Source of the DNA: a virus
Taxonomy: Duplodnaviria; Heunggongvirae; Uroviricota; Caudoviricetes
Length of the DNA: 32,432 nt
IMG/VR virus record: IMGVR_UViG_2541047755_000010
Reading direction: 5' to 3' (one strand)
Shown here: piece after piece, positions 4,579 through 32,432 of the stretch
Layout: the number at the start of each line of letters is the position of its first letter
Numbering within the stretch: the first letter of the stretch is position 1
Program-made: the position numbers and the translations under genes
Notes under the pieces: model-generated
The model's database searches: none
What the model saw: only the letters and a program-made list of their open reading frames with translations
Told to the model about the DNA's origin: nothing

Positions 4579-6726
4579 TTGGCTGTTCAATTCGCGTTTC
4601 CGTGGAATGCTCCACGGTCGGCAATAGCCAGTCCATATCTTACCTACGACCAACAGTATCGCCGCGACCGTATGCTCGCGGCTTTGCTGCATGCTAGAAA
4701 GGTGCTTTCCCTCCAGCCCGAGTGTGTACGTTTTGACGTTTATCGCACTGCTGCGGTGCTGGAGCAAAATCAGGGCAGTCAACGAGCCAATGCTTTTTTA
4801 ATAAGCTTCTGCAAAAAGGCATTGCCGCGTTTTGAACTGGTCGCAAAAAAATACGAGTGTACCGGTATTAACAGCAACGTATCAGCCGCTGTTTTCGGTT
4901 GTCATTTCGATACTCAGCTTATGCAATATCTGGCGTCTCGCATGGTCAACATAGTCGCCAGATACAACCGACTCCCGGATATGGCACGCGCCGACATCGA
5001 CCTGCTGGCTGCTGATATCGCCGATTTTATCCGTGCAGAGTTAGTCAACATTGACGATTCTGACATGTGTGAACTGGAGACATTAAATGCCTGGTATATG
5101 CATGCTGGTTTCATCACTCAGCAATTCAGGATAATGCCACCAGAGTGGGAACGGTCGCGGGATAAATATTGGGATCAGGATAAAGTCGCTCCAGCAATTG
5201 CCCGTATGTTTTCGGAAAAATGGTGGCGTGGCCGTCTGCGTCGCATTGCGGCTGCGTGGCGCGAACACCTGCAAATCGCAATCGGAAATGTCAGTAAGAA
5301 AAAACATGTCTACGCGAGTAAAAACTGCGTGACAGACTGGCGTGAACAGAAGCGCCGGACGCGCGAATTTCTCAAAGGTCTGGAGCTTGAAGACGAAGAC
5401 GGCAACCGTATCAGCCTGATTGAAAAATACGATGGTTCAGTCGCTAACTCTGCGATTCGACGCTGTGAGCTTATGACCCGCATTCGTGGGTTTGAAAATA
5501 TCTGCAATGAGCTCGGTTATGTTGGTGAGTTTTACACCCTGACCGCACCGTCTAAATATCACGCCACGACAAAGGCAGGCTACCGTAACACCAAATGGAA
5601 TGGATCCAATCCATCCGATACGCAATGTTATCTCACTGGCCTGTGGGCACGCATTCGCGCAAAACTCCACCGTGAAGACATTCGTATTTTCGGGATCCGC
5701 GTTGCAGAGCCTCACCATGACGGGTGCCCTCACTGGCATATGCTGATGTTTATGCTCCCGGAGGACGTCGATACCGTTCGTGGCATTATTCGGGACTACG
5801 CATGGCAAGAAGATTTTCACGAACTCAAAAGCGATAAAGCCAAAAAAGCACGTTTCCACGCAGAAGCCATTGATCCGGAGAAAGGCAGCGCAACCGGCTA
5901 CGTCGCGAAATACATCTCGAAAAATATCGACGGTTACGCTCTTGATGACGAAACCGATGACGAAAACGGTGAACTGTTGAAAGAGACAGCCCCCGCCGTT
6001 TCAGCATGGGCGGCGCGCTGGCATATTCGTCAGTTTCAGTTTATCGGTGGTGCACCAGTGACTGTTTATCGTGAATTGCGTCGCCTTGCAGATACCGAGA
6101 CCGCGCACGGTCTAAGTGTTGAGTTTGCGGCTGTCCATGATGCCGCCGATGCCGGTGATTGGGCTGGCTATGTTAATGCGCAGGGCGGTCCGTTTGTCCG
6201 TCGCGATGATTTGCAGGTGCGTACGCTTTATGAACCGCGCACCGAGTTTAACCAGTATGGTGAGGAAACTGTCTGCATTCGTGGTGTGTACGACTCCACC
6301 GTTGGTGTTGGCACTCCGATTTTAACCCGGCTCACGCAATGGAAAATTGTTCCGAAGCGTGCCGTTGATTTGGCCGTTGACGTTAAGGACGGCTTCGCCG
6401 TCCCTTGGAGTTCTGTCAATAACTGTACGGGAAGCGAAAGCGATCCACCGGAACTCGATTTATCAAAACCCCTGAGTCGACGTGAAAGGCGAGAGCTGAC
6501 GAACCGAATCAGGAAACCAAAGCCACCTAAGAGGCCGAAATTTATCCACGGAACAGATGAGCAAAGTGCTCCGATAGAAAAAACTATCGACGAGATCCGT
6601 CTGACAACCGGCATTACCATCAGCCGGGGAGAAGCCCTGCACCTGATAGCAGGTGGCAAAAGTTGTATTAACGGTAAATGGTTGCGTGGAACGTCCAAAG
6701 GTGAAATTTTCTCCGCAGCGCCATAG
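4579..6726 (+). CDS. A: rolling-circle replication initiation protein (P2 gpA family)
   Basis: About 715-aa ORF containing the PHHDGCPHWHMLMF metal-binding motif and the YVAKYISKNIDGYAL catalytic-tyrosine region typical of P2 A. The 4579 codon is TTG; the exact start is uncertain. Confidence 0.9.
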   Translation: MAVQFAFPWNAPRSAIASPYLTYDQQYRRDRMLAALLHARKVLSLQPECVRFDVYRTAAVLEQNQGSQRANAFLISFCKKALPRFELVAKKYECTGINSNVSAAVFGCHFDTQLMQYLASRMVNIVARYNRLPDMARADIDLLAADIADFIRAELVNIDDSDMCELETLNAWYMHAGFITQQFRIMPPEWERSRDKYWDQDKVAPAIARMFSEKWWRGRLRRIAAAWREHLQIAIGNVSKKKHVYASKNCVTDWREQKRRTREFLKGLELEDEDGNRISLIEKYDGSVANSAIRRCELMTRIRGFENICNELGYVGEFYTLTAPSKYHATTKAGYRNTKWNGSNPSDTQCYLTGLWARIRAKLHREDIRIFGIRVAEPHHDGCPHWHMLMFMLPEDVDTVRGIIRDYAWQEDFHELKSDKAKKARFHAEAIDPEKGSATGYVAKYISKNIDGYALDDETDDENGELLKETAPAVSAWAARWHIRQFQFIGGAPVTVYRELRRLADTETAHGLSVEFAAVHDAADAGDWAGYVNAQGGPFVRRDDLQVRTLYEPRTEFNQYGEETVCIRGVYDSTVGVGTPILTRLTQWKIVPKRAVDLAVDVKDGFAVPWSSVNNCTGSESDPPELDLSKPLSRRERRELTNRIRKPKPPKRPKFIHGTDEQSAPIEKTIDEIRLTTGITISRGEALHLIAGGKSCINGKWLRGTSKGEIFSAAP

Positions 6727-6875
6727 CTTCAGGCAAAGCCTAGGGAAATCCTTAATCGTGTTGCGGTGCTGGCAGAAACATCAAAACTCACAGGTGATTA
6801 ATTTACATCCATATCATGTACATACAACACCTACCCGATTCACTTTTTCTCTTCCCATCTTTTGCCAATACGTTA

Positions 6876-6895
6876 TACTGTATAAATACACAGTA
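6876..6895 (+). promoter_or_regulatory. LexA (SOS) box overlapping a promoter
   Basis: tactgtataaatacacagta matches the CTGT-N8-ACAG LexA consensus and lies about 20 bp upstream of the GGGAGGGA RBS of the 6916 ORF. Confidence 0.8.
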
Positions 6896-6915
6896 ATCCT
6901 ATTGGGAGGGATTTC

Positions 6916-7098
6916 ATGGTTGGGAAACATTTCAGCCGAACGCAGCAAAAGTGGGCTTGTGTGCAATTTATCGCCGAGATATCTCTTATTGCCAACTGCA
7001 AACCGGCAGATTTGAAGCTGGCACTAACTCTGATTGCCGGCCTAGCTAACAGCGAAAGCGACGAAGAAAAAGACGAAATTTTCTATAAGGCTGAATAG
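6916..7098 (+). CDS. SOS-inducible small protein, Tum-like antirepressor candidate (60 aa)
   Basis: Strong RBS (GGGAGGGA) and ATG directly downstream of the LexA box. Position after the replication gene matches 186 tum, but the ORF is much shorter than 186 Tum as I recall it. Confidence 0.5.
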   Translation: MVGKHFSRTQQKWACVQFIAEISLIANCKPADLKLALTLIAGLANSESDEEKDEIFYKAE

Positions 7099-7379
7099 GT
7101 AAACGCGCTGATGCAAAAACTAGATTTTGGCGTCAGCGGGTTTGAACAACGAGCCGCGCGAGGCGTTAGCCTGCCCTTGAAAATCTGACCATGGCCGGCA
7201 CTTTCAAAGTCGTTTTTTATGCCATTTTTCCACGAATTTCCCGTTTTTTAGCTGTGCATGCATCAGGCGCATGATTTTGCATGCGACATGGGTTGCACGT
7301 TCTAGCCGTGTGCCGCCACAGCTGGCGCGTATCCAGAGTGGTCATGCAACTGCATTAAAACCGCCCCATAAAGCGGGCA

Positions 7380-7398
7380 GGCGTGGCGGGGATAGCAT
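7380..7398. other. candidate cos site (cohesive-end sequence)
   Basis: ggcgtggcggggatagcat is 18 of 19 identical to the 186 cohesive-end sequence as I recall it (GGCGTGGCGGGGAAAGCAT; P2 is GGCGAGGCGGGGAAAGCAC). Lies in a non-coding stretch between the tum-like gene and the accessory cassette. Confidence 0.55.
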
Positions 7399-7469
7399 TG
7401 CGCGCCAGAGCAATACAATACATAATTGCTTCGCTCCGTGTATAACATATTCATAGCAAGAGGGATTCT

Positions 7470-8453
7470 ATGGCAACGCAAGATTATAAGAGTAAAATGC
7501 TGCATTATCGCCATGCAATAATGCTTCCTAAAAAGGATGCTCTTTTAACATCAAACCTGCAAGATAGGTTGGCAAACCTTGTGAAAATCAAGGTTCCAAA
7601 TGTTGCTGATAGATTATTCTTCCCTGATGTTCCAGATAATAATGGTAATGTCGCTGCTCACGCCCACATGGTTCTTTCAAATAGCAAAGAAATTCATGGA
7701 ATGTTTTTTGCGGAAATTGTCTATATTGAACCGGGTAGTAGCATTCCTGTTTTCTCTGTTAGCGATTATGCTAAAACAGCTTTAACATACGAGACATTAA
7801 ATTTATCAAGTGGGAATGCTAGAGAGTATTTAGAAAGCATTGCATACATTGGTGTAATTAAGAACCACTTCATAATTCTGCAAAGCAGATCTATTAGAAT
7901 AAAAGATATTGAAAATTATATAAATTTCATACTACAAGACAACCTATCTATTACTGATGATAACTTCATCGTTTTACAGGCAAACAACCTGTCTCTAAAT
8001 ACGGATTTTTTAAAACGTAACATAGTAAAAAATGTTAGCTTAAAGCTGCCTTTAACCTACTATGGAAATAATATTGATGATACAGCTAGTGAGCTATTAA
8101 AAACGCTCGTAGGTGAACATCGAATTAATGAAATGAAGAAAAATGCCATTTTAAATGATGGTTCACCTGACAGGGAATCTCTATCAATTGATATTTCCAT
8201 TGGGTATAAATATAAAGCAAGCGAGTCTGAGCAAGACATGTTGCGTAAAATTACACAAGGCTTGGTTGATAATAGAGATGAAAGCTTAACAATTGAGTTA
8301 AAAGGTGCAGGAATACTCAGGAATGATGAGATTCAACTAAAGGATTCAGTTAATATTGAATACAGCAATGGAATGCTAATTGCTGACAACGTTGCTGAAG
8401 AAATGATTTCATGGTTATTGCGCTTACTAGACACCGGAGTAATTAACCCATGA
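7470..8453 (+). CDS. hypothetical soluble protein (327 aa), first gene of an AT-rich two-gene accessory cassette
   Basis: ATG with an AGAGGGA RBS; strongly AT-rich codon usage unlike the flanking phage genes; no recognisable catalytic motif by eye; its stop overlaps the next gene start (ATGA at 8450-8453). Confidence 0.7.
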   Translation: MATQDYKSKMLHYRHAIMLPKKDALLTSNLQDRLANLVKIKVPNVADRLFFPDVPDNNGNVAAHAHMVLSNSKEIHGMFFAEIVYIEPGSSIPVFSVSDYAKTALTYETLNLSSGNAREYLESIAYIGVIKNHFIILQSRSIRIKDIENYINFILQDNLSITDDNFIVLQANNLSLNTDFLKRNIVKNVSLKLPLTYYGNNIDDTASELLKTLVGEHRINEMKKNAILNDGSPDRESLSIDISIGYKYKASESEQDMLRKITQGLVDNRDESLTIELKGAGILRNDEIQLKDSVNIEYSNGMLIADNVAEEMISWLLRLLDTGVINP

Positions 8454-9136
8454 TAAACAATACGTTACAAACATATGCAAAAAACATAGCAAGCTCAATT
8501 GTAATTGGGCTTATATGTGGTTTTGTTATTGTTTTTGTTTATTCAAAATACTCATTTTTAATTGATTTCGATCCTATAATTTCAAAGGGGATCTCTGTCT
8601 TTAGCGCCGTAATCATTAGCCTCATGTTTAAGCGACTAATTGATGCTGATGATAAAATAAAGGAGTTAGAACTCCCCGCAAACACTCCATCAAGGATAAA
8701 GGATTACTTTGATGATCAAAGAACTTCATACATTCTTGACACCACTAAAAACAAAGTAACCATTGCATATATTTTTACCCTGATTTTGTTTTTTTTGATA
8801 TCACTAACGTTATCAGCGTCAATAACAAAAGTTAATGTTTATTATGGGGTATTTTTTAATTCCGCACTAACGACTACTTGCTTGGTTTTTTCAGTGTATG
8901 CGATACTATTCATTAATAGACAGACGGACATTTCAAGAAACGCAAAGTCATTCTTAAGTGAAATAATAAAAACAGAACAAGAAAGACAAAAATTAATAGA
9001 CACCATAAATAAAAACATTCGTGATGGTGTTAGTAAGGTTAACACTACCGAAATAAGGAAAAACAAAGCATTCAATATTAGAGAGTATGTAGATAATTTA
9101 GAAAAAGAGGTTCCACCACCACAAGATAAGCAATAA
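8450..9136 (+). CDS. hypothetical four-helix membrane protein (228 aa), second gene of the cassette
   Basis: Four hydrophobic helix-length segments (IASSIVIGLICGFVIVFVY, ISVFSAVIISLMF, IAYIFTLILFFLISLTLSA, VYYGVFFNSALTTTCLVFSVYAILFI) followed by a charged coiled-coil-like C-terminal tail; translationally coupled to the upstream gene. Confidence 0.7.
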   Translation: MINNTLQTYAKNIASSIVIGLICGFVIVFVYSKYSFLIDFDPIISKGISVFSAVIISLMFKRLIDADDKIKELELPANTPSRIKDYFDDQRTSYILDTTKNKVTIAYIFTLILFFLISLTLSASITKVNVYYGVFFNSALTTTCLVFSVYAILFINRQTDISRNAKSFLSEIIKTEQERQKLIDTINKNIRDGVSKVNTTEIRKNKAFNIREYVDNLEKEVPPPQDKQ

Positions 9137-9192: not shown

Positions 9193-10230
9193 TTAATCAA
9201 AGGTATACGGCTTGAACTTAATTAAATTATCACCAAACCAATGATTTAATTCACGAATCCTATCTTGCAATGGAGTTAATTCATTGCGAACAAATACTTT
9301 TGCCACTTTCTCAATATCGCCCACTGAGCCGACGTTCTCAGGCTTGCCGCCCATCAACTGGAACGGGATGCGGTGCGCGTCGAGCAGGTCAGCGGCGCTG
9401 ACTTTCTTGATATTAAAAAAATCATCCTTCGTCGCGACTTCGCTCAGCGGCACAATTTTAATCCCATCCGGTTTACCGTGCGGTGCGTAGAAAAACAGAT
9501 TCTTAAAATTGCCGAGCCCTTTCGAGTCGCGCATCGCCTTTCGCAACGCTTCGACGTCAGTGCTGTTCTGAGCGGCATCGGTCACATACATGATGTACCC
9601 TGCGTGCGCGCCGTTCTGGTAATACTTGCGACGAAACAGTGTCGCTGACTCATTCAGCCAGGCTGAATTGAGTGCGCTCAGGTATTCCGGCATCCCGTAC
9701 AGCTCCTGATTAATATCAGGCTCAAGCAGGTGGAAGACGGAACCGGGCGAAAACTGGTGCGGTTGCGTGTAGGACTGGATATACCAGTACACGTCATCAT
9801 CAACGCCACGACGGGTATATTTGGCCGGTGAGGTCTCCAGCTTTAGCGGCTTGCCAGTCAGACCGCGACGCTCTTCGAGAAAGGCGTTGCCAAATACCAG
9901 ATAATCGAGCACGAACCGGCTGAAATCCTGACGCGATAACAGCGGGTGCGGGATGTAGGTCGACACCAGAATATTACGCTTCACGTAAATCGGTGAGCTG
10001 TGATGAACGGCGGCGCGCATGCTCTTCGCCAGCCCGGAGAAGCTCACCGGCGGCTCATACCATTGGCCGTTGTCGATGCACTCCACATAATCGAGAATGT
10101 CGCGGCGATCGAGTACCGGCGTCGGCTCGCCAAAGGTGAATGCCTCCATGCTCTGTGCCGATGCGGCGGTGTGACTTTGGGGGCGCGGCTGCTGTCGCTT
10201 GTTGTTGCGATTCTTGCTCATTAGTTCCAC
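9193..10230 (-). CDS. Q: portal protein (P2 gpQ family)
   Basis: 345-aa ORF immediately downstream of and overlapping the terminase large subunit gene, in the P2 Q-P arrangement; size matches P2 Q. Confidence 0.85.
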   Translation of the reverse strand: MELMSKNRNNKRQQPRPQSHTAASAQSMEAFTFGEPTPVLDRRDILDYVECIDNGQWYEPPVSFSGLAKSMRAAVHHSSPIYVKRNILVSTYIPHPLLSRQDFSRFVLDYLVFGNAFLEERRGLTGKPLKLETSPAKYTRRGVDDDVYWYIQSYTQPHQFSPGSVFHLLEPDINQELYGMPEYLSALNSAWLNESATLFRRKYYQNGAHAGYIMYVTDAAQNSTDVEALRKAMRDSKGLGNFKNLFFYAPHGKPDGIKIVPLSEVATKDDFFNIKKVSAADLLDAHRIPFQLMGGKPENVGSVGDIEKVAKVFVRNELTPLQDRIRELNHWFGDNLIKFKPYTFD

Positions 10231-18005: not shown

Positions 18006-19349
18006 ATGGAAAATAAAAAATATCAAGTATTTGTGAGCTCTACATACGTCGATTTAATTGATGCTCGCAAAAAAATCATAGAAACGGTCCTTAGTTTATA
18101 CCACTTTCCAGTTGGCATGGAGATGTTTAGCGCTGATGACTCTGAGCAGTGGGATATAATAAAGGAGACTATTGATGCTAGTGATTATTATGTGATTATC
18201 ATTGGGCATAAGTATGGGTCCGTTTCTAAAGATGGTATTAGCTATACTGAAATGGAATATAACTATGCTAAATCATTAAATATACCGGTGTTGGCTTTTA
18301 TTAGAGGGAGGGACGTTTTAACAAAACCACATGAACGAGAAAGTGACCCTCAAAAAGAAAAGCAACTAAATGCTTTTATTGAAAAAGCTAAAGCTAACAA
18401 AATGTGTGATTTTTGGGAGACAATTGATGAGTTAGCGACGAAGGTTGCTATCGCCTTACCAAAAGTAATGCGACGAAATCCACGAATAGGATGGGTGCGC
18501 GGTGACCAGGTCGCATCTAAAGAGATTACCGCCGAGTTGGCTGAGCTATCTAATGAAAATAGAAAATTAAGGGAAAAAGTCCGCGAATATGAAAGCCAAT
18601 TACATAGCGATGCACCTCAATTAGAGCTGAGCATGATTGATAATGACTTAGCTTTGACGGTGGATGTGGAGTCGACTTATCAGGATTACCTTCCACAACT
18701 ATGCAAGGAAGCGGTACCTCTTGAGTTGAAGGACACTATCACCATTGATGAGATTGAATCATATAACTCTTCACTGCCTACTGATAAAGATGTGGATTTA
18801 TATAATAAAAAAATGAGATTGCACTGTAATTACAAAAACAATGCAATTACAGTGAAGCCCGTTTTAAGAAATAATGGGAGGACTTTTGCGTCAAATGTTT
18901 ATGTTGAGATTGATTTTCCTGAATTCCTAATAGTGCTTAAAGGTTCTAATGAAGACTTATTTATAAAAGAGCCGAAATTAAAAATCCCTGAGTCCCCAAT
19001 AAGTAAGCATAAAAAAAGACTCAGTGCTATAATGTCACTCGAAAATTTTAGGATGGGTATTTTTGATGATACATCGATGGTAATGGCTAAACCTCATTTC
19101 GAAGTGCCAGCAATAATTAAACGGATGGCTGATTTAGGAACAGTTAACCAAGATGAGTGGGTCATGAAAGAGGACCATAAAATCACGTTGCGTGCGAAAA
19201 AAGTGTTACAGAGCTTAACTGTTGAGTATGAGGAAATAGTCATCATTCCCTTAACGATTGGCTCTGGAGTTATTAATTTTAAAATTATATGTGAGCAATT
19301 GAAGGAGCCTGTTGTTTTTTCTCGTCAGGTTACAGTTACCCCAAGCTAG
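18006..19349 (+). CDS. AT-rich accessory protein (447 aa) with a DUF4062/TIR-like N-terminal domain, a coiled-coil linker and an uncharacterised C-terminal domain
   Basis: ATG at 18006 preceded by GAGGA. N-terminus KYQVFVSSTYVDLIDARKK…YYVIIIGHKYGSV…IPVLAFIRG resembles the DUF4062/TIR-like N-terminal pattern as I recall it. Coiled coil around ELAELSNENRKLREKVREYESQL. Sits between S and V, where P2 carries orf30. Confidence 0.7.
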   Translation: MENKKYQVFVSSTYVDLIDARKKIIETVLSLYHFPVGMEMFSADDSEQWDIIKETIDASDYYVIIIGHKYGSVSKDGISYTEMEYNYAKSLNIPVLAFIRGRDVLTKPHERESDPQKEKQLNAFIEKAKANKMCDFWETIDELATKVAIALPKVMRRNPRIGWVRGDQVASKEITAELAELSNENRKLREKVREYESQLHSDAPQLELSMIDNDLALTVDVESTYQDYLPQLCKEAVPLELKDTITIDEIESYNSSLPTDKDVDLYNKKMRLHCNYKNNAITVKPVLRNNGRTFASNVYVEIDFPEFLIVLKGSNEDLFIKEPKLKIPESPISKHKKRLSAIMSLENFRMGIFDDTSMVMAKPHFEVPAIIKRMADLGTVNQDEWVMKEDHKITLRAKKVLQSLTVEYEEIVIIPLTIGSGVINFKIICEQLKEPVVFSRQVTVTPS

Positions 19350-22668: not shown

Positions 22669-22944
22669 ATGGCAACTCCATTCATTGATCTACGTGGTGA
22701 GATCAATCGTGCGAGTGCATACCGAAACGGAAGTCTTCCTGTTTGGATCTTACAATCGTCCCAAGGAGATGGCATTCCAGTTAGTTTTAGTGCATGTGCA
22801 GATTTCAGTTTTAATCCGGATACATTTATATCCAGCGCCAGTACTCCCAGCGTCAGCGGAGATTCTTCATCGTTAGGATGTAAATGTAGTTATATAGAGC
22901 GAGTAATATATTATGCTTACAGAGTTGTTCCAACTTCATACTAA
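22669..22944 (+). CDS. hypothetical small protein (91 aa) in frame with H but separated from it by two stop codons; possible remnant of a variable tail-fibre segment
   Basis: Same frame as H; Ser/Gly/Thr-rich; a divergent inverted copy of this DNA lies near the other end of the segment. Confidence 0.3.
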   Translation: MATPFIDLRGEINRASAYRNGSLPVWILQSSQGDGIPVSFSACADFSFNPDTFISSASTPSVSGDSSSLGCKCSYIERVIYYAYRVVPTSY

Positions 22945-23351
22945 ACCCTAGATCGTAACGAGGATTTTACTTATGTTGTGAGGGCGGCCTAATAAACAAT
23001 GGAATATTATGTGAAGGCGTAAATGGCATAAAAGGGGTAGACGCTGAAATTAATAATCCTTATCGCGGGACGAAGGGGTTTTCCTGCATGTTAAGAGAAT
23101 CCACCGCCGATGGCGTAGGAACCCATGGCTGTTCCCGAATAGATAAAGCAGCAACACATAAAGCTGGTCAAGCATTATACGGACCGGCAGAAATGGACTC
23201 ATAGAGAGGTGTTCGAGACCCTCACGGGGAAATAACCTGCACCATCGAATCTGGGGCATCATTATATGTACGCGCTGGAGCTGGTTGCCCTGAAAATTGC
23301 TCCAGTTTTGGCACGTTATACGCATATGGTAATTGAGGTCAGGAGAAATCC

Positions 23352-23588
23352 GTGGCGGTGACGGTAGCTCATCCTGTTACCGCGTCAGACTCATCCGAAA
23401 CACAGTGCCGTTGGGTGGTTGATGCCGCCGTCGACTCCCGTACGCCCAGTCATCTGAGCTTACAGGGAGTAAGGAAATCGATTGAGGCAGAAACAACTGA
23501 CTTTAACTCCGTGTTTGATGCGACTGCCGCGGTGCTGGCCAGAGCTTCCATCTCCGCGCCGGATTTCATATGGCCCCAATTGCCATAG
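23352..23588 (+). CDS. hypothetical small protein (78 aa)
   Basis: GTG start preceded by an AGGAGA RBS at 5-nt spacing; no recognisable similarity. Confidence 0.3.
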   Translation: MAVTVAHPVTASDSSETQCRWVVDAAVDSRTPSHLSLQGVRKSIEAETTDFNSVFDATAAVLARASISAPDFIWPQLP

Positions 23589-24366
23589 GGGTTGGACATG
23601 GCGTTACTGGAGGTATTGACATGTCAATCACTCGGAGCGCTGCCAGCTATTGATGCTACTATTTATATTGTGCAAGTTACTTCCCCTTCATGCGCCGGCT
23701 CGCAGCCTTACCAGGTCAAAGTTGCCGGACCACATAATCGATAGCCTGATTAATGAGTAGCTGCTGCTCCAGTACGACTGCAGGCATCTATTCCTCCTGT
23801 GTCCGCAATAGATTCTCTGACTATGCAAATATATTCTCGCCTTTCGCGATCATGATTATACATGTTAGCGGTACTCGGGTTTATGGAATTTACGTTGTCT
23901 TTTCATCCTGCATTACTTAACAGGCAGATCTCACGATATAATTAAAGTCATTGTTACTATCCAGGGTTTAGTTTGAAGTTGGAACCACTCAAGAAGCATC
24001 ATATATTACTCACTCTACATAGCTACCTTTACTGCCTTCAGATAAAGATGATGCGACGACGCCAGTTGTACTAGCGCCAGATTTAGATTGGTACGTATTG
24101 AAACTGAAACCCGCACATGCAATAAAACCATTTCGAACGGTATCTGCTGTTTACGATTGTAAGCCAAAAACAGTATCACTTCCTTTTGCGTATGCAAACC
24201 CAAGATGGAATACACCATGTAAAGCAAGGAATTTTTCTCTGATGTAACCCTATGCAAGAATAAGGTATTATTGAGATTTATGAGATCCACTGTTGGATTT
24301 AAACCGGCTTATTCGCCCAGTAGCAGGAGTCCACTTAACAGGTGCACCAACGGGTAATGCCGAACC

Positions 24367-24392
24367 TTCTCCCAAACCAACGTTTAAGAAAA
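24367..24392. repeat. right recombination site (inverted partner of the 22520-22545 site)
   Basis: ttctcccaaacc-AA-cgtttaagaaaa; its reverse complement ttttcttaaacg-TT-ggtttgggagaa matches the left site in 11 of 12 positions of the right half-site with the same TT core. Confidence 0.7.
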
Positions 24393-24446
24393 TGTAGTTT
24401 TCCCCCCTAGCTGGCATCATTTGGGCTTTTGCATGAGGGAAAACAA

Positions 24447-25025
24447 ATGCAGGTTGGCTATGTGCGCGTATCAACAAATGAACAAAATACCGCGCTACAG
24501 CGTGACGCGCTGGAACGGTCGGGATGTGAGCTAATTTTCGAGGATAAAATCAGCGGTAAATCGACAAACAGGCCAGGGTTAAATCGCGCACTCAGGCAAC
24601 TTAATGCCGGTGATACTCTCGTTGTCTGGAAGCTCGACAGGCTCGGGCGTAGCATGCGCCATCTTGTCTCTATGACTGAAGAGCTTCGCCAGCGAGGGGT
24701 TAATTTCAGAAGCCTGACCGACAGTATTGATACCTCAACCCCGATGGGGCGATTTTTCTTTCACATCATGGGCGCTCTTGCAGAAATGGAACGCGAGTTA
24801 ATCGTCGAACGAACCCGCGCCGGGCTGGATGCAGCCCGGGCACAAGGCAGGATCGGAGGTCGTAGGCCGAAGCTGACGCCTGATGAATGGGCTCAGGCTG
24901 GCCGGTTGATTGCGGCCGGAGAATCCCGACAGCGTGTTGCACTGATTTTTGATGTGGGCATATCGACGCTGTATAAAAAATTTCCGGCGACAAATCCCGT
25001 TGTGTCAGCCACCGGCGAACCCTGA
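24447..25025 (+). CDS. serine recombinase, DNA invertase of the Hin/Gin/Cin/Pin family
   Basis: 192 aa from the ATG at 24447; MQVGYVRVSTNEQNTALQRDALERSGCELIFEDKISGKSTNRPGL…LVVWKLDRLGRSMRHL…FRSLTDSIDTSTPMGRFFFHIMGALAEMERELIVERTRAGL…GRIGGRRPKLT… is near-collinear with Gin/Hin as I recall them, including the catalytic Ser in YVRVSTNEQ. Confidence 0.93.
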   Translation: MQVGYVRVSTNEQNTALQRDALERSGCELIFEDKISGKSTNRPGLNRALRQLNAGDTLVVWKLDRLGRSMRHLVSMTEELRQRGVNFRSLTDSIDTSTPMGRFFFHIMGALAEMERELIVERTRAGLDAARAQGRIGGRRPKLTPDEWAQAGRLIAAGESRQRVALIFDVGISTLYKKFPATNPVVSATGEP

Positions 25026-31709: not shown

Positions 31710-32432
31710 TTAGATTGGTAATGAAAAAGCTATCGCCTTGCAGATATGTTGCTTTGTTAACGCAGGATGTGTTGAAGCAAAAAGCGATAAAAAGCTTTTA
31801 GCTTCAACCGAATCATCATTAAGCGAAATATTATCTTTGATGAATGGATGAAGTGCGATTCCAGCGCTCATAGATAACGGCACATAGTTGATGAATATAT
31901 CTTCTTTTGTGAGACCTAGCTGGTTTGCTTGTGCTTCAAATGAATTAGCATCTAAATAATCACGTATACGTTCTTTGGCCTCTGGTCGGAGTCTCGATTC
32001 TTGACGCGGCAGAGAAAGCATCTTATCAATATCTCCCCATGAGATAGGAACCTCAAAATAGCCACCACCTTCTTCCTCTGGAGGTGCCGGGAAATTCACA
32101 TAAAAATAGTTTTTTTGCTGTGTAGGGTCGTTCATGGACTGACGATGATAGTTATAAATACTTCTAATACGGTTGGCCTTGTTATGATGCCGAGCATTTC
32201 GAATAACAAGCATCATTAATAATTCAGGTTTCAAATACCAGTCAGGCTCTAATCCATTGCTTTGCATGTTGTCATACAAATTATGAAAAGCATTAAGTTG
32301 TGTATTCAGGCCCGATTCTAAATTGCCAATTGCTTCAGCACGATCAATAGCCAACAAACGCTGTAGTGACCAGTTAGACTCTAATAAAACCCGAAAGGCC
32401 TGTGCAAGATCTTCAAAAGAGTGGGAAAGCAT
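31710..32432 (-). CDS. hypothetical protein (at least 240 aa; the N-terminus may lie beyond the window edge), AT-rich
   Basis: Long minus-strand ORF convergent with ogr and running to the window edge; AT-rich compared with the phage backbone; no recognisable motif by eye. Confidence 0.55.
   Translation of the reverse strand: MLSHSFEDLAQAFRVLLESNWSLQRLLAIDRAEAIGNLESGLNTQLNAFHNLYDNMQSNGLEPDWYLKPELLMMLVIRNARHHNKANRIRSIYNYHRQSMNDPTQQKNYFYVNFPAPPEEEGGGYFEVPISWGDIDKMLSLPRQESRLRPEAKERIRDYLDANSFEAQANQLGLTKEDIFINYVPLSMSAGIALHPFIKDNISLNDDSVEAKSFLSLFASTHPALTKQHICKAIAFSLPI

Follow-up and report, generated by a model that had tools for sequence, protein, structure and literature searches.

Between the replication gene A and the cohesive-end sequence cos, the window (the whole 32,432-nt stretch of DNA that was analysed) contains a LexA box, a promoter and a 60-codon open reading frame followed by a hairpin. 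The window is apparently a complete 186-type (Eganvirus-like) prophage of E. coli, and not one of the P2 type. This assignment is based on a CI repressor with the Pfam domains Phage_CI_repr and Phage_CI_C, encoded by cI at 2164-2742 on the minus strand, on a CII of the CP76 family and on a P2-type A replicase, encoded by gene A at 4579-6726 on the plus strand (Phage_GPA, E = 2.4e-128). Other Pfam matches in the window were to a DUF2732 protein and a zinc-finger protein of the TraR type. The prophage carries all structural and lysis genes, together with int, an apl-like gene and cII. Among isolated phages, PSP3, RCIP0057, Midge, SEN1, SW9 and the Yersinia Eganvirus group come nearest, with gene A about 83% identical at the DNA level. 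The tum region of the window was found at 100% identity in 12 complete E. coli genomes and at 99.9% in a 13th. In E. coli strain PCN033, the corresponding prophage sits between yfiB and rplS and has a full head, tail, lysis, int and ogr set; a position-by-position comparison of this prophage with the window gave 675 differing positions, so the window stems from a related strain and not from PCN033 itself.

Away from the tum region, hypothetical genes are found at the prophage ends (203-1129 and 31710-32432, both on the minus strand), one adjoining the integrase gene and the other coming after an ogr-like regulator; these are possible further moron or cargo genes. A 447-aa DUF4062-domain protein is encoded at 18006-19349 on the plus strand, as an insertion flanked by the virion-morphogenesis gene and baseplate gene V. 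P2 has orf30 at this site (PMC2771037), and the insertion point appears to be another accessory or cargo site. In the tail-fibre region (22906-25025), tail-fibre and assembly genes lie in opposite orientation beside a recombinase-family gene (24447-25025), an arrangement that suggests an invertible host-range segment.

The E. coli SOS box is a 20-bp palindrome, TACTG(TA)5CAGTA, with invariant CTG and CAG. An earlier note on this DNA had claimed a canonical LexA box, CTGT-N8-ACAG, within 6860-7098, and the claim held. A LexA (SOS) box, TACTGTATAAATACACAGTA, occupies 6876-6895 on the plus strand, where the window reads tactgtataaatacacagta, with the inner CTGT-N8-ACAG at 6878-6893. Against the consensus TACTGTATATATATACAGTA, 18 of 20 positions match; both mismatches fall in the spacer, and neither the CTGT and ACAG arms nor the TA flanks deviate from it. 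The box is homologous to the LexA site annotated in 186, which fits the consensus equally well, also with 2 mismatches. When the window was shuffled with dinucleotides preserved, none of 100 shuffles gave a match with 3 or fewer mismatches. The bare CTGT-N8-ACAG pattern was observed twice in the window against 0.34 expected. The second copy, at 5974-5989, was rejected as a LexA site and taken as chance, because it lies inside the coding sequence of gene A, has a G/A-rich spacer and lacks TA flanks.

The box had also been said to overlap a promoter-like region, and a promoter scan found the corresponding pair of hexamers on the plus strand. The -35 hexamer, TTCCCA (6852-6857), lies outside the span given in the earlier note and was not mentioned there. 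The -10 region (6874-6881) can be read as TATACT at 6874-6879, with a 16-nt spacer, or as TACTGT, with an 18-nt spacer as in the annotation of 186 p95. The 186 record marks a -35 (TTCACA), a -10 (TACTGT) and a LexA site, TACTGTATGTTTATACAGTA, ahead of tum, and the promoter of the window aligns base for base with this LexA-repressed p95, whose site has been defined experimentally, TTCCCA falling on TTCACA. Window, PSP3, RCIP0057 and 186 can all be aligned over the promoter stretch, with -35, box and spacing conserved, and the box overlaps the -10 (TATACT or TACTGT) in the same layout as in annotated p95. By analogy with 186 and PSP3, LexA would be expected to bind at 6876-6895. From the architecture of p95, bound LexA would occlude the -10, since this element lies inside the box or abuts it. 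UV induces 186 through p95, by LexA derepression and Tum expression (PMC7708051; PMC3121763).

The open reading frame downstream, referred to here as tumA, runs from 6916 to 7098 on the plus strand and encodes a predicted 60-aa Tum-type antirepressor. Its ATG lies 190 nt 3' of the gene A stop codon and 5 nt after a Shine-Dalgarno sequence, GGGAGGG (6904-6910, plus strand), which is conserved in related loci; the gene stands between A and cos and has the same direction of transcription as A. A 60-aa frame with a strong ribosome-binding site, downstream of the replication gene and in the place of 186 tum, was what the earlier note had described, and each of these points was borne out, the last by the 186-type CI, CII and A and by the alignment with p95 and its LexA site.

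By BLASTP, the product of this frame is identical to PSP3 TumA (NP_958094, 60 aa) at 50 of 60 residues (83%; E = 2e-39); in the PSP3 record, TumA bears the description 'similar to 5' end 186 tum; UV induction of prophage'. Residues 4-60 also matched phrog_1993 (E = 3.2e-28). Among 5.8 billion protein clusters, 112 homologues were found, almost all of 59-63 aa and several named TumA in UniRef, from Escherichia, Salmonella, Klebsiella, Citrobacter, Enterobacter, Cronobacter, Yokenella, Kosakonia, Pluralibacter, Cedecea, Pantoea and other genera. An exhaustive HMM search of 1.84 billion representatives returned 35 clusters, nearly all of them stand-alone proteins of 58-74 aa. When 29 homologous genes were compared with the window frame, differences at codon positions 1, 2 and 3 numbered 244, 135 and 644; because they pile up at third positions, the comparison indicates a real gene with purifying selection on the tumA frame. 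A core of 31 residues, A14-A44, is almost invariant across relatives. AlphaFold2 predicted, in a small and uncertain model (pLDDT 69), a hairpin of two helices at 8-25 and 30-46 and a disordered acidic tail. No model in Pfam, NCBIfam or PADLOC matched the 60-aa protein, the DinI models of Pfam and NCBIfam (PF06183 and NF007893) being among those without a match, and a profile search of PDB sequences with TumA gave no match.

The short product had been called Tum-like, which the identity to PSP3 TumA and the family shared with 186 Tum through phrog_1993 support, and alignment to 186 Tum had been put forward as the check. On this point the outcome was divided. BLASTP of the product against 186 Tum gave no alignment, a result that is regarded as a false negative because profiles and PSP3 connect the two proteins. 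First, phrog_1993 is also matched by residues 1-61 of 186 Tum (E = 1e-22), at the same profile positions (1-61) as the window product. Second, hhalign of the TumA family against 186 Tum placed residues 15-47 onto Tum 13-45 with 33% identity (E = 1.3e-4, probability 53%). Third, tblastn of 186 Tum on PSP3 ran colinearly and in a single frame through tumA, one stop codon and tumB (E = 1e-25). Identity between 186 Tum and the window TumA is about 33-38% over some 30 residues, which is invisible to BLASTP. An exhaustive search with the TumA profile at E <= 1e-3 did not retrieve the fused 186-type Tum; this profile was made from closely related TumA sequences, and its narrowness keeps the search from serving as independent confirmation of the 186 link. 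TumA is a remote but genuine homologue of the antirepressor half at the N terminus of 186 Tum, and its connection to the biochemically studied protein runs through profiles and the PSP3 intermediate.

Lemire et al. (2011) described Tum as an antirepressor fused to a DinI-like sequence (PMC3121763), and in 186 Tum the NCBIfam DinI model (NF007893) matches residues 72-142 only. As reported second-hand in the same paper, the two halves of Tum are split by a stop codon in Fels-2 and PSP3 (PMC3121763). The upstream gene of PSP3 is there said to hold the antirepressor activity, on the strength of a personal communication from G. Christie (cited in PMC3121763), and the activity of PSP3 TumA being known by personal communication only sets a limit on the present reading. 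Shearwin et al. (1998), as cited in PMC3121763, found that Tum binds CI reversibly and blocks its binding to operators; the same mechanism is assumed here for TumA. No DinI-like sequence was found anywhere in the window by tblastn with PSP3 TumB and 186 Tum. Because the DinI-like half or tumB is missing and the frame ends at 60 codons, followed by the hairpin, the gene is classed, from its sequence, as TumA-type and not as a full-length Tum. The likeness to Tum claimed earlier holds for the N-terminal antirepressor half; that the DinI-like half is absent had gone unseen.

Conservation of the box and gene was examined in a sample in which one genome per species was scanned, giving 30 further tumA loci, or 31 with the window. 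CTGT-N8-ACAG was found upstream of the tumA start in 30 of the 30 further loci (31 of 31 with the window), with 4 or fewer mismatches to the consensus in every box and, in most loci, a distance of 35-41 nt from box to start codon. With the loci aligned on the box, its 20 columns held 1.64 bits per column, compared with 0.58 over 40 upstream columns and 0.38 downstream. In most of the 30 related loci the -35 motif, CTTC(C/A)CA, is kept together with its spacing to the box; in four of the 30 (L013, L015, L029 and L032) the upstream sequence is otherwise unrelated and the box is kept. Since the box is retained in 31 of 31 loci across genera while its flanks drift, there is strong evidence that it is functionally constrained together with the gene. 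Two loci of the sample, L008 (from a 'Bacillota bacterium' MAG) and L018 ('Chryseobacterium sp. 18061'), carry near-identical enterobacterial prophage sequence, and their labels probably reflect assembly contamination or mis-binning.

Downstream of tumA, the operon is minimal: tumB or a DinI half and orf97 are absent, and the gene is followed by the hairpin, cos and an AT-rich cargo pair. Positions 7101-7379 align with the final 282 bp of the 186 genome, and the sequence corresponding to these starts directly behind the tumA stop codon. The strong hairpin (7101-7143, plus strand) has 19-nt arms and no T-run, with a folding energy of -22 kcal/mol (z = -5.4), and has homologous counterparts after 186 orf97 (4845-4887 of L003) and after PSP3 tumB (3219-3260 of L001), arm substitutions keeping the pairing. 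It recurs 3' of whichever gene ends the SOS operon, be it tumA (window), orf97 (186) or tumB (PSP3), and may act as a partial terminator, stabilise the 3' end of the mRNA or represent a recombination joint. An Rfam scan of 6400-7700 gave one chance, sub-threshold snoRNA match only, so the hairpin is not taken for a known RNA family. Further on, a degenerate counterpart of the 186 terminator t95b (7193-7218, plus strand), with a weak stem and T6, aligns with the annotated t95b; the 66-nt stretch folds at -7 kcal/mol, no better than shuffles. The cos sequence, GGCGTGGCGGGGATAGCAT (7380-7398, plus strand), is identical to the annotated cos of 186 at 18 of 19 positions and sets the 3' boundary of the SOS operon region.

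In 186, tum (146 aa, with several internal starts and a DinI-like C-terminal half) is followed by the terminator t95a, by orf97 and by the terminator t95b, whereas the window has neither the DinI half nor orf97. What 186 shares with the window is a homologous promoter and LexA site, the same genomic position and Tum residues 1-61, which belong to the same PHROG family. PSP3 resembles the window in the length of tumA, its position after gene A, the -35, the LexA box and the ribosome site, but it has tumB (DinI-like, 77 aa) 4 nt after tumA and in frame, then gp37 and gp38, all of which the window lacks. In RCIP0057, as in PSP3, tumB and further ORFs come after tumA. Among the 30 species-level loci, no tumB is seen in about 20 (two of these being on contigs too short to judge), and 9 have it. 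Of the isolated phages with TumA in the phage collection, 7 of 7 also encode tumB.

The presumed target of TumA is CI, the 186-type immunity repressor. No match to Peptidase_S24, and hence no LexA-like self-cleavage domain, was seen among the Pfam hits of the window CI, so an antirepressor route to induction is expected. Across 16 TumA-bearing loci, the N-terminal HTH of CI (residues 20-72) is 83-92% identical to that of the window, compared with only 35-66% for the C-terminal oligomerisation domain. The N-terminal domain of PSP3 CI is identical to that of the window at 54 of 65 residues (83%), and the TumA/CI pair of the window is for this reason regarded as the same kind as the PSP3 pair. 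In 186 and Yersinia phage MDG45, another type of Tum is found with another type of CI N-terminal domain, about 41% identical to that of the window. Antirepressor type and CI N-terminal-domain type go together, and, judging from these patterns of conservation only, TumA likely contacts the N-terminal DNA-binding HTH domain of CI; such a contact would account for the report that Tum makes CI lose its operators. PSP3 CI has 286 aa and two HTH domains, whereas the window CI has 192 aa and one, as in 186. CI proteins of about 280 aa with two tandem HTH domains were seen in L037 (PSP3 cI), L005, L007, L010, L019, L020, L023 and L025, and in these the HTH adjoining the C-terminal domain is the conserved one.

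We consider it likely that the region is the SOS operon of a 186-type prophage reduced to tumA, in which DNA damage would lead to TumA production, CI inactivation and induction. This agrees with the earlier note, which took SOS induction through a short Tum-like antirepressor to be probable. In an undamaged cell, host LexA on the box at 6876-6895 would block the p95-like promoter. Upon DNA damage, RecA would become active and LexA would cleave itself, allowing the promoter to fire, and the 60-aa, two-helix TumA would be translated from its strong ribosome site. TumA would then bind CI non-covalently and keep it off its operators, so that the lytic promoter pR would be derepressed and the prophage would excise and replicate. 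The binding of TumA to CI, the domain of CI contacted and a productive induction are modelled in this scheme on 186 and PSP3.

It was also considered that TumA is made under SOS but that induction is unproductive, either with the prophage defective through a truncated A or with TumA, in the absence of a DinI-like partner, acting only transiently and being reversed by CI/CII. For a defect in A, it can be said that the reading frame is closed by an amber TAG (6724-6726) in place of the Ser codon of PSP3, RCIP0057 and other relatives, with 25 further in-frame codons leading to a TAA at 6799-6801, and that PGAP calls gene A a pseudogene in PCN033. However, the functional A protein of 186 and the A protein of a Pluralibacter locus (L012) are also without this C-terminal tail, the latter ending at the same residue. 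The tail may be dispensable, and with these two proteins in view gene A is not regarded as inactivated. The phage genes other than A are all intact, and the tum region is kept at the identity given above in the 13 complete E. coli genomes. For an unproductive induction in general, the tumA-only layout was seen in no isolated phage of the collection, that is, in no phage shown to grow; induction of 186 fails when CI synthesis outruns Tum (PMC7708051), and from BTP5, a Salmonella prophage that expresses tum, no detectable phage was released (PMC7067206). Against this, the tumA-only layout is the commoner one (about 20 of 30 loci, with two on short contigs), and tumA is under purifying selection within the sample. 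We regard an unproductive induction as unlikely.

Between cos (7380-7398) and the portal gene (9193-10221, minus strand) lie two overlapping AT-rich genes (7470-9136, plus strand), with 30-33% GC compared with about 50% for the phage and closed by their own hairpin and T-run terminator. They encode a soluble protein of 327 aa and a protein of 228 aa whose N-terminal half is hydrophobic and probably membrane-spanning. No match to the pair was found in Pfam, NCBIfam or PADLOC, and the PHROG family matched, phrog_3482, is of unknown function. Distant homologues of the 327-aa protein (23-26% identity) occur in Acinetobacter, Stx2, SfIV and Perceval phages; in one locus inspected the homologue stands beside a small second gene, and one homologue is annotated 'DefenseFinder protein'. 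In 186 only 196 bp are found in this place. The gpA-gpQ region is a known defence hotspot of P2-like phages (PMC9122126), and the cargo pair is a candidate for an uncharacterised anti-phage system.

The position of these genes raises the question of whether the LexA promoter also, or even mainly, switches on the pair when the prophage is integrated, by read-through of the hairpin, the weak terminator and cos, TumA being then only part of the output. The cargo genes share the strand of tumA and begin 371 nt beyond it. The hairpin in between has no T-run, folding of the t95b counterpart does not exceed that of shuffles, and the 186 record gives t95a as only a partial terminator. From cos to 7470, the scan for sigma-70 promoters yielded no convincing candidate. 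The case is purely positional, however, and promoters in AT-rich DNA may escape a simple scan. In the 186 annotation the p95 transcript ends at t95b, short of cos, and the pair, with its foreign GC content and its own terminator, looks like an independent insertion in the gpA-gpQ hotspot (PMC9122126). Read-through would, moreover, not replace the function of TumA. We hold this arrangement to be distinctly improbable.

Still less can be said for a lambda-like route, in which RecA would stimulate self-cleavage of CI and the small protein would be an unrelated SOS accessory, such as a DinI-type regulator of RecA. A DinI-like domain or gene does occur in the same operon in 186 and PSP3, but the DinI match of 186 Tum lies wholly within residues 72-142, the 60-aa protein has no DinI similarity, and the tblastn searches with PSP3 TumB and 186 Tum found nothing of the kind in the window. 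The window CI, for its part, is composed of Phage_CI_repr and Phage_CI_C, with no match to Peptidase_S24, and this route is accordingly judged very improbable. Finally, although short ORFs and 16-bp palindromes arise by chance and this ORF is without a Pfam or NCBIfam model, a chance palindrome beside a 60-codon frame that is not a gene is refuted by the conservation data (no match in 100 shuffles, box and ORF together in 31 of 31 loci, third-position bias, 112 homologues and a PHROG family) and can be dismissed.

The preferred reading, a LexA-controlled operon reduced to tumA and acting on CI, has parallels in GfoA and GftA of the Gifsy prophages and AntC of N15, in which a LexA-repressed gene outside the immunity region likewise encodes a small protein that inactivates a non-cleavable repressor by binding to it (PMC3121763). 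These differ in that they belong to lambdoid and N15 phages and act on other repressor families, and in Gifsy prophages a dinI homologue precedes the antirepressor gene. The feature in the window is the tumA form of the known LexA-Tum switch, found in an unstudied prophage, and it brings no new principle. In two papers on the phylogeny of P2-like phages, no mention of tum was found. In the sample, single-gene tumA is the commonest layout; this form, and not the textbook fused Tum of 186, is the usual one of the switch in Enterobacteriaceae, and a RefSeq 'hypothetical protein' gains a name and a likely function as a TumA antirepressor.

The tumA-only reading predicts that the prophage, which at least 13 complete E. 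coli genomes share with this region unchanged, that of the pig pathogen PCN033 among them, would respond to DNA-damaging agents, e.g. quinolone antibiotics and mitomycin C. It would do so by an antirepressor route and not by repressor cleavage, which would affect phage release and the spread of cargo genes. A more speculative extension, which we put forward tentatively and think unlikely, is that any prophage with TumA could induce in trans any other co-resident prophage of the same CI class, and that in this prophage the LexA-controlled transcript might also run on through cos into the candidate defence pair, bringing the cargo under SOS control. The idea of induction in trans comes from the near-invariance of the TumA core and the CI N-terminal HTH across at least 12 enterobacterial genera, while CI C-terminal domains and other phage parts vary freely, and it presupposes that TumA recognises the shared HTH surface. 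If it were true, these prophages would form a cross-induction network like that shown for the Gifsy prophages, and the tumA-only module would be the minimal portable unit of such a network.
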